From assembly GCA_022813865.1 (NCBI GenBank), contig JALDZX010000070.1, positions 1-64,000 on the forward strand: a DNA stretch of 64,000 nucleotides, read 5' to 3'. A program made the translations under genes and the position numbers. Below, one piece after another: positions 1,932 to 14,331 of the stretch. Below the pieces are notes generated by a model. The model searched no databases and was not told the origin of the DNA. It saw only the letters and a program-made list of their open reading frames with translations. The first letter of the stretch is position 1, and each line of letters begins with the position of its first letter. The DNA is from Xylographa opegraphella (taxonomy: Eukaryota).

Positions 1932-2890
1932 GATTTGAGCGCATTGATTAGTGGTTTCATTGACAGCTGGGTGTTACACAAAGCCCCACGTGTCTGACCT
2001 GTTGTTATATTGAGGTCCTATGACACCTGTTTCGAATGTTGCTTGCGCCGTTGACGGGTACTTGGCAGACACAAGAGGAGAGCAAAGCAAAGCCCCCACT
2101 CACTTTGTTCAGCCAAAGTTGTTACTAACGTTATGCAAGACTTGTATCCTGTCGAGTACTTTGTCAACCCTGTATAGCTCCATCCTCCCACGCCTCCGTC
2201 TACATCGCCCCTCTAAACTTTCCCCCAGTCCCTCTAGCCCTCGCCTCCAATTTACGATTCCATTCCCCAGCCCCAATTGTCACTCCCATACCTGCCACCG
2301 CACGCCCAGCAACAATCCTCGCAGCGACGACCTTGAGTTCGCCACTACAAGAAGTCCGGGTTCCAAGCCTACAGCGCGGCGGATGTCCCAGGTCAAAATA
2401 ATACAAAGACTACGTCAAGGGCGTGAGACGCATAAATCGTAGCAGTTATCAAATCCGCTCCGGATATCCAAATTATTATGGATTGATCGGCGGGCAAGCG
2501 TAGCTTCGTACAAGAGATGAAGATCCTGCCGGCGCACATCACGAATCAGAGGAACAAGTAGATCGAGAATCAGCCACCCGCGCGCAATAGAGACATCTGA
2601 GGATCTCCATAGTCAGAACTTGAAATGTCAGCTGGAATTGTTAACCGCATCCATGTTCACGGTAGATACAAATCCCATCGCATACCTGGATATTGCTTAG
2701 CCGTTACGATGCCACTATAGCGTACACGTATTCAATATCAGGCTGTATCACTCTTCACCCATATATTTCTATATACTTAGTAGAATTCCTCCGTCAGCCT
2801 AAATTAGTTCACATCGCCGTGCTCCTCTAGCGGAACCTTGATATGCCCTGGTTATTTGCTCAATGGCCCCCAACAGCAAGACACACTTTC

Positions 2891-3009
2891 ACATACGACC
2901 ACAGACTCAAGAGAACTGGCTATCCCGTCCGCTCTGGCATACATAACCTTGAGATCGGCTGATTAGTAGTTGGGTGGGTGACCACCAGCGAATCCCAGCT
3001 GTTGTATGT
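2891..3009 (+). rRNA. Dispersed 5S rRNA gene
   Basis: Begins ACATACGACC and contains TCCCGTCCGCTC and TTAGTAGTTGGGTGGGTGACCACCAGCGAATCCC. Ends GTTGTATGT, complementary to the 5' end, and is followed by T-runs (Pol III terminator). Confidence 0.95.
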
Positions 3010-3268
3010 TTTTGCTTTTTGCTTGAGTTTGGTGGTCCTTGGGTGGTGTCTACCCTCCTGTACTGTGCTTGTTTAGACCCTTTTCAATGTTTTTAATCTC
3101 GGCCCAGCTGCATGTTTGGCGTGTTTCTGTGAATGAGAATTCGGCTTGTGATGTCATTTGACCCAATTGATGAGCTTCCTTATTGGCAACAGGGCTGTCT
3201 TCAAACGTTTCTGGAGGTATCATCTAAGCATAGTGGACTCTTTGTACTCTTTGTAAACGCTCAAGAGG

Positions 3269-4298: not shown

Positions 4299-4438
4299 CT
4301 TGGTTATTGCAGCGTAGCTGCTCTAAGGATGAGGGCGTCCAAATCGAACTTCGGCCGCTAGTGGCGCAGTATTTCCGCTCCGATCCGTGGAATATTCCCT
4401 CTTCGGGTTTAGCTCAAGAGGGGCCTTGGCTTTCCACA

Positions 4439-4478
4439 ACGCTGCATATTGAGCGAGAGGTCCCCTCACACTGGATCA
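4439..4478 (+). repeat. 40-bp dispersed motif, copy 1 (copy 2 at 12551-12590, minus strand)
   Basis: acgctgcatattgagcgagaggtcccctcacactggatca matches the reverse complement of 12551-12590 at 34/40 positions without gaps. Confidence 0.7.
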
Positions 4479-5374
4479 CCTGGTATTGAATGTTGACGTT
4501 CCCACATCAGATGGTAGCCTTGGTAGACTCGGCGAGTACAACGACAAGATGTTGGCTCAGTTACAGCGTCGTGTTATGAACGGTGTTTACTATGTGACGT
4601 CGTGCAATAGAAGTGTAAGGCTAGCCTTATGCAGCTCCATCAACCAGCCACCTCGGAGAATTTCATCCATAACCATACGAGACCAAATCTGCTGCTTGTA
4701 TATCCTGATATTTGGTGTAGTCCTCTTGAGAAAGATCCCAATTTGGGCGATACTATGGAGATTCTACCACTTGTGGACTTGTGGAACCTCGATTTCTCTC
4801 TGCTGATCTTGGATAAGCTATGTCGGCCTTGGTATTTACAGTAAAGCCATATACGCGCCTACGGACCACTGCATTAATATGCCGAATCTGATACACACTA
4901 CGTCGTACGGCTCATCAATTCGAAGTCCGCGACTACTACCTTTTGTACAGGAAGACAGGTCCTGCCACGATGGCGCGTCTTCGCTAGCATATCCATCCCT
5001 CCTACCATGTGAGCTGCTAAAGACCCAGCCCGAGGGAACATCATAAAGTATTGGCAAACGCTACAGATCCGCATCCGTCGATGTACACTTATTGAATATA
5101 CCATTCCGAAACGCCCCAAAGACTCCATATCTTCAACCAGCCGGCAACGTCCCGGCACGCACAGAGCGCACGCTTTTACCACCACCGTTCTTTCTATAAA
5201 CATCATACCGGTCTCCACTGCCGCAAATCAGACATCGACCATGCCAGGAAGCCATACCTACCCAATTAACGCTGAAGTAAACATTTGCAAAAAGGAACCA
5301 GGCGCAAATGAGCCGACCCCGAACCTTCCAATATACAATGCAAAATCACTCTTTCCCACAGGCCGACCAAACAT

Positions 5375-11002: not shown

Positions 11003-12030
11003 ATGCGCCTCACGGCTGAGCTCATCCAATCCTCCCTTTCCTACCTCAACCCCCTCAAGGAGCGCGAATTAGATCTTAGAGGTGCGTACAAGCTGAAAAG
11101 AGCAGATACTACACTTTGAAGGAATGAGCTCCATTGATATCATTTCCGAGATATGCAGGCCACAGAATACCCGCGGTGGAAAACTTGGGTGTTGCAAAAG
11201 TTTGTCTATTGGCCTAAATCTGTGTATATTGCTTATCCGAGGATCAGGACCAAGACGCAATCGACTTCACAGACAACGACATCACTGCTCTCGCCAACTT
11301 CCCCCTTTCGCCACGACTACATACCCTACTGCTTGCACGCAATCGTGTTACCAGTATTCAGCCTAACCTCGCAACTTCCTTACCGAATTTGACTACCCTT
11401 GTCCTGACATCAAATAACTTTGCGGAGTTGGCGGACTTGGATGCGCTAAGACAGTTCTCGAAGCTTACACATTTGACACTGCTGGAGAATCCGGTCACGA
11501 GAAGAGAAGTTCGTCCATGGAGTCGTGATGGAATGGATCGGGGCTAATTGGACCATCTCTACAGAACTATCGTCACTGGATCATATGGCGTTGCCCAAGT
11601 GTCCGTTTCCTCGACTATCAGAAGGTGAAAGACGTAGAGCGTGAGAAGGCGACTGAGCTCTTCGGGACCGTCCAGGAGCCGTCAGCGTTGGCTTCGAAGG
11701 CATGTTTGCTTCGTTTTCACCATTCCTTAACATTGAAACGCTACAAATATGCTGCCTCGTTTACAACGTCTTTCTGTAGGATGCTAACTATCTGTTCAAC
11801 AGATCATGGGCATCAAATCCCGCACCTTTGATATCCCGAACAACGCCTCCACGCCAGTCAACGGTATGAAGTCCTACCGCGTCAAACTCACAGAAAAGGA
11901 GAAGAAGCGGGTTGAAGACTTGATCCGTAACGCAAAAAGTCTGCAAGAAATATCGCGGCTGGAGAAGGAGCTGAACGAAGGGCGGATACCGGGCGGTGCG
12001 ATGGGAGGTGGGGATGACATGGAGGAGTAG
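11003..12030 (+). CDS. LEA1: U2 snRNP protein A' (leucine-rich repeat); 5 exons
   Basis: Spliced MRLTAELIQSSLSYLNPLKERELDLRGHRIPAVENLGVAKDQDAIDFTDNDI...LENPVTRRENYRHWIIWRCPSVRFLDYQKVK...IRNAKSLQEISRLEKELNEGRIP. Introns at ~11082-11158, 11200-11247, ~11509-11564 and 11700-11802 (GC-AG). Confidence 0.95.
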
Positions 12031-12550
12031 AGTATGCATAGCTAGAACAGCAAGAAATCAAAAGTGTATTAGGTCCTCTCTACTACTGCATATCGTGACT
12101 GAGCAATGAGGTTGGCCGAACGGAAAAGGTCCAAATCCATACTTCCTTTTCTATAATAAATTCAAATTTCATTCCAAGGCAACCTGATACTTGCTCGTCC
12201 CGTTTCAACAGGATCGCTACGCCTGACCCCAGATATCTGGGATGCCGAAGCAGTTCCAGAGAACAACGATAAGCACAAACCCAATAAAAAAAGACCCCAT
12301 GTATAGAGCAGACATATCTTCGCTCCTGACAACCTAGAGACATTACCCAACCACCAAGGCACACCTCTTCTCACATATCCCTTCTCAAGCTTCCTTTCTC
12401 CTCTGTAAGACCCTCTGTAAAACAAGCTGTAGACCTATCACATAAGTAGTAAGAGCCGTTTCGTTCGATCTTGTTTCCAGATTCCATCCACGTCGTGGCT
12501 GGCACAGGTCACTTTGCTAGATCGGGGCACGCGCTCAGGAAGCTTGAAAA

Positions 12551-12590
12551 TGGTCCAGCGTGAGGGGGCCTCTCGCTAAATATACAACGT
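12551..12590 (-). repeat. 40-bp dispersed motif, copy 2
   Basis: Minus strand acgttgtatatttagcgagaggccccctcacgctggacca, 34/40 identical to 4439-4478. Contains the hairpin AGCG-A-GAGG/CCTC-A-CGCT. Confidence 0.7.
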
Positions 12591-12621
12591 GCTGCAGAGT
12601 CACAGAGCCACAAAAAAGAAA

Positions 12622-12755
12622 TCGACGGGTGCAGGATTCGAACCAAGGACCTAAAAAGCACGCTAGCGTGGGTATCCCAGGTCTGAGCCTCAACAATCGA
12701 GGAATTCTCCGGAGAACAGAAGTCTTGCTGATGCCACAGCTCCACCACCACGATC
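12622..12755 (-). pseudogene. Degenerate tRNA-like gene (Arg-TCT-like) with a ~60-nt insert at the canonical intron position
   Basis: A-box-like TGGTGGAG, anticodon-arm-like CAAGA-CT-TCT-G (TCT at 12720-12718), AGGTC variable region, perfect B-box GGTTCGAATCC (12644-12634), then TTTCTTTTTT. Acceptor and T stems pair imperfectly. Confidence 0.55.
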
Positions 12756-12788
12756 GTGCAAGAAGCCCAAAAAAAGAAAGTGATTGTT

Positions 12789-13005
12789 GCATACAGCTAG
12801 TTTGGTTTCACTGACCACCCAGATCTGCACTTGGCGCAATGCTTGGCACCCTCTGAGCTTGGGATTAGATTTCGTCCTAGGAACAACCTGCCTATGGGAG
12901 TACTTTGCATCCCCAGGGACCTACTAACAAACCTAGGGAAGGTAGGTTGTATGGCGCAAGCCTCTTGGCAAGATTGCCCAATTTCCCGACCCCTTGGCCG
13001 TATGC
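12789..13005 (-). ncRNA. Expanded 5S rRNA-like sequence (217 nt) with a ~100-nt insertion; function unknown
   Basis: The ends GCATACGGC/GCTGTATGC form a 9-bp helix I. The first 40 nt match the 5S at 2891 at 23/40 without gaps. TTAGTAG is retained, and the 3' block CAGTGAAACCAAACTAGCTGTATG parallels CAGCGAATCCCAGCTGTTGTATG. TATATA at -31..-26 and T7 downstream. Confidence 0.65.
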
Positions 13006-13030
13006 ATCTGCCAAAACTTCTTATTTTTAA

Positions 13031-13036
13031 TATATA
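13031..13036 (-). promoter_or_regulatory. TATA box upstream of the 5S-like sequence
   Basis: Minus strand GAGGTATATATTAAAAATAA. TATATA lies 26-31 nt upstream of the inferred +1 at 13005. Confidence 0.5.
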
Positions 13037-13080
13037 CCTCAACTCCTGCACCTCCTGGTAAGGCTGCACACTTGGCCATC

Positions 13081-13730
13081 GCCCACACCTCGATGCACTT
13101 CCTCATTGCTCGTAGGTACACCTTGTTGTTGCCTACCTTACCTTATACTCTTCTTCTTTATTGCATGCGCACCTGTCCATCTTGCCCATGCATCTCTTTG
13201 CGACCGATGCACTCGGTCGTGCGACTGTCCACACGCTTCCTTCCTGCCCACACACTTCCTCATTGCCCATACACTTCGTCTTCGCCCACACAGTGTGCTG
13301 CTCTCCCCTATACTCTGTATTGCGACCGATGCACTTTGTCACGTGACAGCCCACACACTTCTCATTGCCCATACACTTCGTCGTCGCCCACACATTGTAC
13401 TGCTGTCCACGATACTCTTTATTGCAACCGATGCACTTTGTCGCGCGACAACGCATATATCATCCTCGCTCTCAGATCTTCTCACACACGTCAACAGCTC
13501 ACAATACGAGCCCCAATCACACGCAAAGTTCCATGTTGCCATGCTCTTTCTTTGGGACTAATGCGCATCATCGCACAACTGCGCACACAACTCAATGTCG
13601 CCATTGTATATTCGCCACCCACCAAACACGAAACACTTCCGTTATCCCCAACACAGTTTCTCATCGCCTCTTTCGTTTACTTATTGCCCGAGGTCTTGAT
13701 TGCGGTCCATGAACTTGGTCGTGCGACCAC
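13081..13730. repeat. Imperfect tandem array (~100-150 bp period) with a hairpin-forming core
   Basis: Core TTGCGACCGATGCACTYKGTCGYGCGAC or degenerate versions start at 13198, 13320, 13422, 13552 and 13700. The block gcccacacactt(c)ctcattgcccatacacttcgtc(t/g)tcgcccacaca is also repeated. Confidence 0.85.
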
Positions 13731-14331
13731 GCACATGTCCCTGCCACCATCACATAGAGGCTTATATACATGTCTCGTCGACACGTATTTCAATTTTGCG
13801 CCCACGTCATCGAGACATCTGGGCCTGCATACGATGATAGCCCTCCATCAAGGTTCGCTTCGACACAAGTCATCTGGTCAGCACAAGGTATATCGTTATT
13901 GATCGGGTCGAGATTCTTCACGAAAGCAGTCGGAAGGCCTCTGTCCGACCACATGAGGTTGAAATATGCATTAGCGCCATTTTACCCCACAATTCCACCT
14001 CCCTTGGCGCCAAGAGTCTGCAGTCTCATACATCCCAGTCCAGTTTGCCGGAAGCCAATAATCGGTCGTCCATGCAAATAGAATTGCTATCCCGACCCAG
14101 TCATCAATCAGTCATCTATCATGAAGATATCTGATTCTACAAAAATGCAACGACCATCTCCCCATATATCAGTCCTTCGCATTCTGCCTATATCCAATGG
14201 ACCCTAACAGTGTAACCGGCCTCTAACTAGCCCTCACTTAGACCTGCCTCTCAGCTACCCCAGCATGACCTTCTAATCTCGTCACCATCTCCCCAGCTGT
14301 TCCATCATCCACAACTTCCACAACTTCCACA

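Follow-up and report, generated by a model that had tools for sequence, protein, structure and literature searches.

The candidate element is a 217-nt sequence on the minus strand of the window (the whole stretch of DNA that was analysed, 64,000 nt), with nt 1 at position 13005 and nt 217 at position 12789. It is intergenic and stands single between two ordinary fungal-type genes, an LRR_9 gene (U2 snRNP A'-like, from about 11218) on one side and a GT4 glycosyltransferase gene (ALG2-like, from 14332) on the other. None of the three ORFs that span the locus matched a Pfam family. The window also carries a normal 5S rRNA gene, which was the only match in a scan of the whole window at the Rfam gathering threshold. 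The features of the element and this comparator are listed below, with the basis of each assignment in brackets; numbers preceded by nt are counted along the element.

13031..13036, minus strand: TATA-like hexamer TATATA, at -31 to -26 relative to nt 1 (sequence inspection)
12997..13005, minus strand: helix I 5' strand GCAUACGGC, nt 1-9, with loop A CCA after it (pairing count)
12939..12993, minus strand: equivalent of the beta domain, nt 13-67 (MFE structure)
12929..12933, minus strand: helix V 5' strand GGUUU, nt 73-77 (register set by anchors)
12921..12927, minus strand: loop E 5' strand UUAGUAG, nt 79-85 (same 7-mer in all four normal 5S genes)
12823..12920, minus strand: insertion of ca. 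98 nt, nt 86-183, preceded by the loop E 5' strand and followed by the helix IV stub (global alignment)
12811..12822, minus strand: truncated helix IV hairpin CUGG-GUGG-UCAG, nt 184-195 (alignment)
12807..12809, minus strand: loop E 3' strand GAA, nt 197-199 (alignment)
12799..12803, minus strand: helix V 3' strand AAACU, nt 203-207 (anchored register)
12789..12797, minus strand: helix I 3' strand GCUGUAUGC, nt 209-217 (inverted repeat I3; pairing count)
12769..12775, minus strand: T7 run, Pol III terminator-like, 13 nt past helix I (sequence inspection)
2891..3010, plus strand: normal 120-nt 5S rRNA gene, used as comparator (Rfam RF00001, 68.7 bits, E 2.3e-12)

Genomic surroundings and comparator genes

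The spacer around the element is rich in short repeats and remnants. A degenerate minisatellite lies just upstream at 13229-13450 (102-bp unit, 2.0 copies, 89% match); it also holds a 19-bp unit in 3.4 copies, and related words run on to about 13060. Directly downstream of the T7 run is a tRNA-like remnant (12624-12749, minus strand) with a T-run of its own (12622-12612) and a T-loop-like sequence, GGTTCGAATCC, at 12644-12634. A tRNA gene at this place was rejected: ARAGORN found none in the window, whether introns were allowed or not, and Rfam found none either; only at the 80% threshold did ARAGORN return a call downstream of the element, an implausible tRNA with a 55-nt intron. About 200 nt downstream, at 12551-12590, there is a 40-nt piece, 85% identical, of a short MITE-like repeat family located at 4304-4485, which shows opposite-strand joints and, at one of its positions, a variant carried by as many as 30 contigs of the own assembly run. 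The hexamer GCCAAG occurs four times in the 217 nt of the element (nt 8, 37, 159 and 171; 12835-12998), as compared to 53 times in the whole window on both strands (128 kb), and once more at 13076, 70 nt upstream. The internal repeat TGCCAAG..TTGCGCCA within the element was not significant (E 0.9).

Four normal genes were used for comparison, namely the 5S gene of the window and three metagenome loci (L001, L002 and L003); their alignment, A1, has 78 invariant columns. All four start and end with ACAUACGRCCA...GYUGUAUGU. An ATATAA hexamer is found upstream of L002 (-30 to -25) and L003 (-29 to -24), while the 5S gene of the window (2831-2890 checked) and L001 have no TATAWA box near -30. The normal 5S of the window is multi-copy, with many contigs of the own assembly run matching 2891-3010, and contigs of two other organisms from the same study (X2 and X3) match both this gene and the LRR_9 gene. 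The X2 and X3 contigs leave 11992-14011 uncovered, and a gap of this kind carries no weight as evidence. For the element, the depth over 12800-13203 (158.3) equals that of a single long contig of the own assembly run. Among the contigs of this run, none represented a second copy at 80% likeness or more, although contigs are better evidence of presence than of absence. When the metagenome was scanned with a pattern for expanded 5S genes, three loci resulted; each is a 5S gene of normal length with a GYTGTATG downstream by chance, and no expanded homologue of the element was among them.

5S-like features and ancestry

The initial annotation described the element as a 5S rRNA homologue with compensated helices, a TATA sequence near -30 and a T7 terminator. 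Both flanking signals are present, TATATA at 13036-13031 and the T7 run at 12775-12769, and the former is placed where two of the four normal 5S genes have theirs. Helix I is fully paired, as had been stated: GCAUACGGC pairs with GCUGUAUGC at 9/9 positions, including a G7.U wobble that is common to the element and the four normal genes, and 10 of 11 nt in the region of the 5' strand are identical to the start of the L003 5S gene. For helix V, given earlier as GTTTG/CAAAC, the complete pairing (5/5) holds but the register does not; fixed by UUAGUAG and GAA, the helix reads GGUUU/AAACU and is shifted by one. The loop E strands were correctly reported as kept, with UUAGUAG identical at 7/7 positions (nt 79-85) and GAA at nt 197-199, and landmarks of the type CCAUA..CAA.C are present at nt 52-61. 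When the 3' partner is slid by 1-3 nt, the number of pairs drops to 1-4 of 9 in helix I and to 1-3 of 5 in helix V. All pair counts were made by a script with anchored registers, since MAFFT put UUAGUAG 3 columns off.

In total, 14/14 pairs of helices I and V are intact. Covariation in these helices, which the initial annotation had claimed, is confirmed as far as pairing is concerned, but only pairs 1-119 (A-U to G-C) and 71-106 (G-C to U-A) are double changes found in the element and in none of the normal genes. The G8-C112 pair also occurs in the normal-length gene L003, the states at pairs 68-109 and 70-107 are likewise seen in normal genes, and pair 69-108 is U-A in the element versus U.G in L003. 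The paired changes had been taken as a sign of structural selection. They show that pairing was selected at some time in the lineage of the element, not that selection persists. Compensation does not equal present function, as filamentous fungi are known to have minor 5S isotypes whose helices are compensated.

Each third of the element by itself is only marginally 5S-like. The local 5S score of the 5' part was reached by 35 of 500 shuffles and 27 of 500 genomic pieces, and that of the 3' part by 25 and 22 of 500, respectively. With blastn no match between the element and the normal 5S of the window was obtained, and nhmmer gave 1.7 bits (E=15, row 7 of 13) with the normal 5S as query and 2.4 bits (E=4.8, row 4 of 13) with the four-gene profile. 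The global alignment of the element with 5S scored 50.05, ca. 2.7 sd above shuffles and genomic pieces, and both the best shuffle (57.25) and the best genomic piece (56.95) scored higher. Such values would fit an element without any 5S ancestry, consisting of short words that were assembled by chance in a repeat-rich spacer beside the minisatellite: its single parts are matched by 22-40 of 500 controls, its global score is beaten by controls of both kinds, and neither nhmmer nor the covariance models described below returned anything significant. Nevertheless, we consider a chance origin highly improbable, for the arrangement of the parts speaks against it. The two local matches between element and 5S (2-26 to 2-25 and 96-118 to 193-216) are collinear and sit in the correct 5S register, and in the MAFFT alignment both ends and the 3' domain of the element are collinear with the four normal genes. 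The register of helix V is set by two independent anchors, and in this register the helix pairs. A composite scan asked for three things: a 5' arm that differs from the start of fungal-type 5S by at most one mismatch, a 9-nt partner pairing with it at every position from a distance of 100-400 nt, and an intervening TTAGTAG; in the real window it found exactly two sites, the true 5S gene and the element, whereas in 60 Markov-random sequences of 128 kb a partner was found for 0 of 76 arm sites. The TATA and T-run are at the correct positions as well: TATAWA alone is found at the offset seen in the element for 0.0027 of window positions, a T6+ run within 30 nt for 0.0034, and TATAWA at -36 to -23 together with a downstream T6+ run for 0.000134. 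It is the combination of features that is decisive. Because of the composite scan, the correct registers, the anchored helix V and the offsets of the TATA and T-run, descent of the element from a 5S gene is accepted.

Altered core, insertion and interpretation

Covariance models did not recognize the element. A search of 12400-13400 against Rfam gave no match to any family at E<=10. Our own model R1, built from the four fungal-type 5S genes and run with filters off, gave 10 matches at E<=10 over the window, none of them at the locus of the element; when applied to this locus alone, its best result was an internal pairing at 12950..12882 (5.3 bits, E 0.16) that corresponds to neither 5S domain. 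The 217-nt span may exceed the window length of the models, but the halves would still be expected as local matches and there were none. The two collinear partial matches to the Rfam 5S model that the initial annotation had predicted thus failed to appear, and R1 matched neither half. The lack of a 5S model match for either half had been named there as an outcome that would speak against its own reading, and this is the outcome obtained.

Adding the element to the normal genes (alignment A2) lowers the number of invariant columns from 78 to 50, i.e. about one third of the otherwise invariant positions are changed. In loop C and helix III, where the four normal genes share the invariant sequence UCCCGUCCGCUC, the element retains 5/12 invariant bases (A2), and in the MFE structure the place of loop C is taken by a small GCC/GGC hairpin. 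In the global alignment, 7 nt of helix IV/loop D are missing (normal loop D is GGUGAC). The ca. 100 extra nucleotides that had been assigned to helix IV were found there, as ca. 98 nt at nt 86-183 (12920-12823) with CUGGG-like words at both borders. The length of 217 nt, as compared to ca. 120 nt for a normal 5S, reflects 7 deleted and ca. 98 inserted nucleotides. At the level of single bases, the alignment of the beta domain and of the insertion is ambiguous and not reliable; hmmalign covered no more than nt 2-39 of the element, and when gaps were made cheap in a profile alignment, another solution resulted, which was not collinear.

Folding calculations gave little sign of structure past helix I. 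The pair probability is 0.99 for helix I, 0.00 for helix V and 0.01 for the helix IV stub. In the beta domain the MFE structure contains a possible helix II (13-17/63-67 and 19-20/60-61) and helix III (26-32/47-54), with mean pair probabilities of 0.37, 0.47 and 0.34 (0.37 for helix II, 0.47 for helix III). The element as a whole has a z of +0.59, with 144/200 shuffles folding as well. The insertion (99 nt folded) has an MFE of -22.1 kcal/mol versus a shuffle mean of -26.75 (z +1.37), and 189/200 shuffles are at least as stable. A forced 5S-like fold with helices V and IV reaches -59.0 versus -67.0 kcal/mol for the MFE, a penalty of 8 kcal/mol. The hairpin GGGGAUGC-AAA-GUACUCCC proposed for the extra segment exists, albeit with one mismatch and two wobbles. 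Three other identities for the insertion or the element were tried and dropped. The best likeness to a nested or duplicated 5S in the insertion, CTCCCATAG... (14/17), was reached by 35 of 500 shuffles and 40 of 500 genomic pieces; boxes of an H/ACA or C/D snoRNA were not seen by eye; and a spliceosomal intron with GU...CAG ends was rejected, also by eye, for its poor 5' splice site.

With moderate confidence, we regard the element as an insertion-disrupted relic, or pseudogene, of a divergent 5S paralogue. The element has diverged strongly from the dispersed fungal-type 5S gene from which it derives. On this account, the helices of the paralogue would have been compensated while it was functional, and a later insertion and deletion would have disrupted it. 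What was kept is the TATA-like box near -30, the T-run terminator, helix I with its G.U pair, helix V and the loop E words, and what disappeared are the parts needed for ribosomal 5S work, the invariant loop C and 7 nt of helix IV/loop D. The ca. 98 unstructured nucleotides sit exactly at the start of helix IV. In other eukaryotes this site lies inside the TFIIIA-binding box C of the internal promoter. If the relic reading is right, TFIIIA-dependent transcription of the element is probably weak or absent, any transcript would presumably not be assembled into ribosomes, and we infer that the element is silent. The description as a 5S homologue with an expansion stands with respect to 5S descent, but not with respect to a working, structurally selected expanded 5S: loop C has 5/12 of its invariant bases, 7 nt are gone, the insertion folds less stably than most of its shuffles, and the pair probabilities of helix V and the helix IV stub are near zero. 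Some observations do not sit easily with a relic. With about one third of the invariant positions changed, uniform neutral decay should have broken some of the pairs, the TATA or the T7 run, yet helices I and V have all 14 of their pairs, two unique double changes among them. Helices II and III are still able to form, and the ambiguous interior alignment (beta domain and insertion) also counts against the relic reading.

It is possible, though rather unlikely, that the element is a living gene instead, with an upstream TATA and an end at T7, for a 5S-derived Pol III transcript of ca. 220-230 nt in a non-ribosomal or regulatory role (exaptation), the ends of which would be protected by helix I. 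We give this a sizeable probability because helix I, the TATA and T7 are intact despite the change of about one third of the invariant positions, which is somewhat unexpected under uniform decay. The TATATA offset shared with two of the four normal genes, the helix I pair probability, the 14/14 pairs with two unique compensatory double changes and the fourfold GCCAAG, which could be a repeated binding word, are all consistent with a transcribed RNA. On the other hand, there is no fold signal past helix I (z +0.59 and +1.37), no Rfam family matches, no second copy or relative was found among contigs of the own assembly run or in the metagenome scan, and the insertion splits the region that is the TFIIIA-binding box C in other eukaryotes. 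A precedent for transcription comes from Aspergillus fumigatus, where two of five 5S-related elements were transcribed according to RT-PCR (PMC5063351).

A true ribosomal 5S isoform with a ca. 100-nt helix IV expansion segment, the eukaryotic counterpart of the oversized 5S of Halococcus type, is very unlikely. Helices I and V, UUAGUAG and GAA would be in keeping with it, and there are prokaryotes with oversized 5S rRNAs that enter ribosomes (PMC7530397, PMC7812874). Against ribosomal use are the loss of loop C invariants (5/12) and of loop D with 7 nt of helix IV, the unstructured insertion (z +1.37), the 8 kcal/mol by which the 5S-like fold of the gamma domain is worse than the MFE, the missing match to the 5S models (Rfam and R1), the presence of normal multi-copy 5S, and the judgement of Stepanov and Fox that the helix IV site is sterically problematic (PMC7812874).

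The most far-reaching proposal is that the nuclear genome encodes a stable Pol III RNA of ca. 220 nt that evolved from a 5S paralogue by gaining a ca. 100-nt segment at helix IV, either an exapted '5S-like' RNA or the first eukaryotic expanded 5S; we hold this proposal to be unlikely. In such an RNA, helices I and V would have been kept by compensatory change and the protein-binding loops C and D remodelled.

The two outcomes differ in what can be learned from the locus. If it is a relic, the element is nothing unusual, since the birth-and-death turnover of dispersed 5S genes in fungi leaves such by-products. Its main use would then be as a caution that compensated helices record past selection and that the 5S core can disappear before a 5S-like frame does. 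If it is transcribed and conserved, it would be an uncommon eukaryotic 5S paralogue with a new form, and a handle on those 5S parts (the ends, helix V and loop E) that are kept for RNA stability or transcription and not for the ribosome.

Relation to known 5S systems

Dispersed 5S genes and pseudogenes of filamentous ascomycetes, reportedly described by Selker and colleagues, Bartnik and colleagues and Rooney and Ward in 2005, are said to form a birth-and-death family. Similar to these dispersed genes, the element is found alone between protein-coding genes, with a fungal-type start and end, a TATA-like box and a T-run. Like the minor 5S isotypes of ascomycetes, it is divergent relative to the major type, and the changes in its helices are paired. 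The classical Aspergillus 5S pseudogenes keep the 5' part and have lost the 3' end, whereas the element keeps both ends and the closing helix and carries an internal insertion of ca. 98 nt and a 7-nt deletion.

The oversized 5S rRNAs of bacteria and archaea and the insertion-bearing pseudogenes share with the element the large internal insertion, a precedent for helix IV as its site, and the question of ribosomal function, pseudogene or extraribosomal role (PMC7812874). Stepanov and Fox (2021) suggest that helix IV insertions may sterically prevent docking and that such an insertion may begin the path to a pseudogene or to an extraribosomal function; oversized eukaryotic 5S database entries are described as mostly tandem repeats (PMC7812874). 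The 5S of Halococcus morrhuae keeps the canonical core, and its insertion forms an ordered junction (PMC7530397). In the element, by contrast, the core loops are lost, the insertion is without a fold signal and a normal 5S coexists with it. The element further differs from the prokaryotic expanded 5S in that it belongs to a eukaryote, where control elements for Pol III lie within the gene; our literature search turned up no expanded nuclear 5S from fungi or other eukaryotes.

Additionally, 5S-derived SINE-like elements are found in Aspergillus. AfuSINE3 and SINE3-1_AO are 259-343 bp long and 50-65% similar to 5S, and some are transcribed; the A, IE and C boxes of these 5S-related elements are poorly conserved and their copy number is low (PMC5063351). 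In AfuSINE3 itself, a 5S head (positions 1-64) is followed by a body and a tail of unrelated sequence; a terminator is mostly absent, and there are about five copies (PMC5063351). Our element resembles the Aspergillus SINE-like elements in size and divergence. Several dispersed copies, a trait of 5S-derived SINEs, were not seen for it (its depth is that of a single long contig, and contigs show presence better than absence), nor does it show a 5S head with a non-5S body, a LINE-related tail and target-site duplications; a T-rich TTTTGG word recurs at its flanks and is uninformative beside a T-run. Unlike AfuSINE3, the element has no second copy at 80% likeness or more among contigs of the own assembly run, and it possesses both 5S ends, which pair with each other and are followed by the T7 run.
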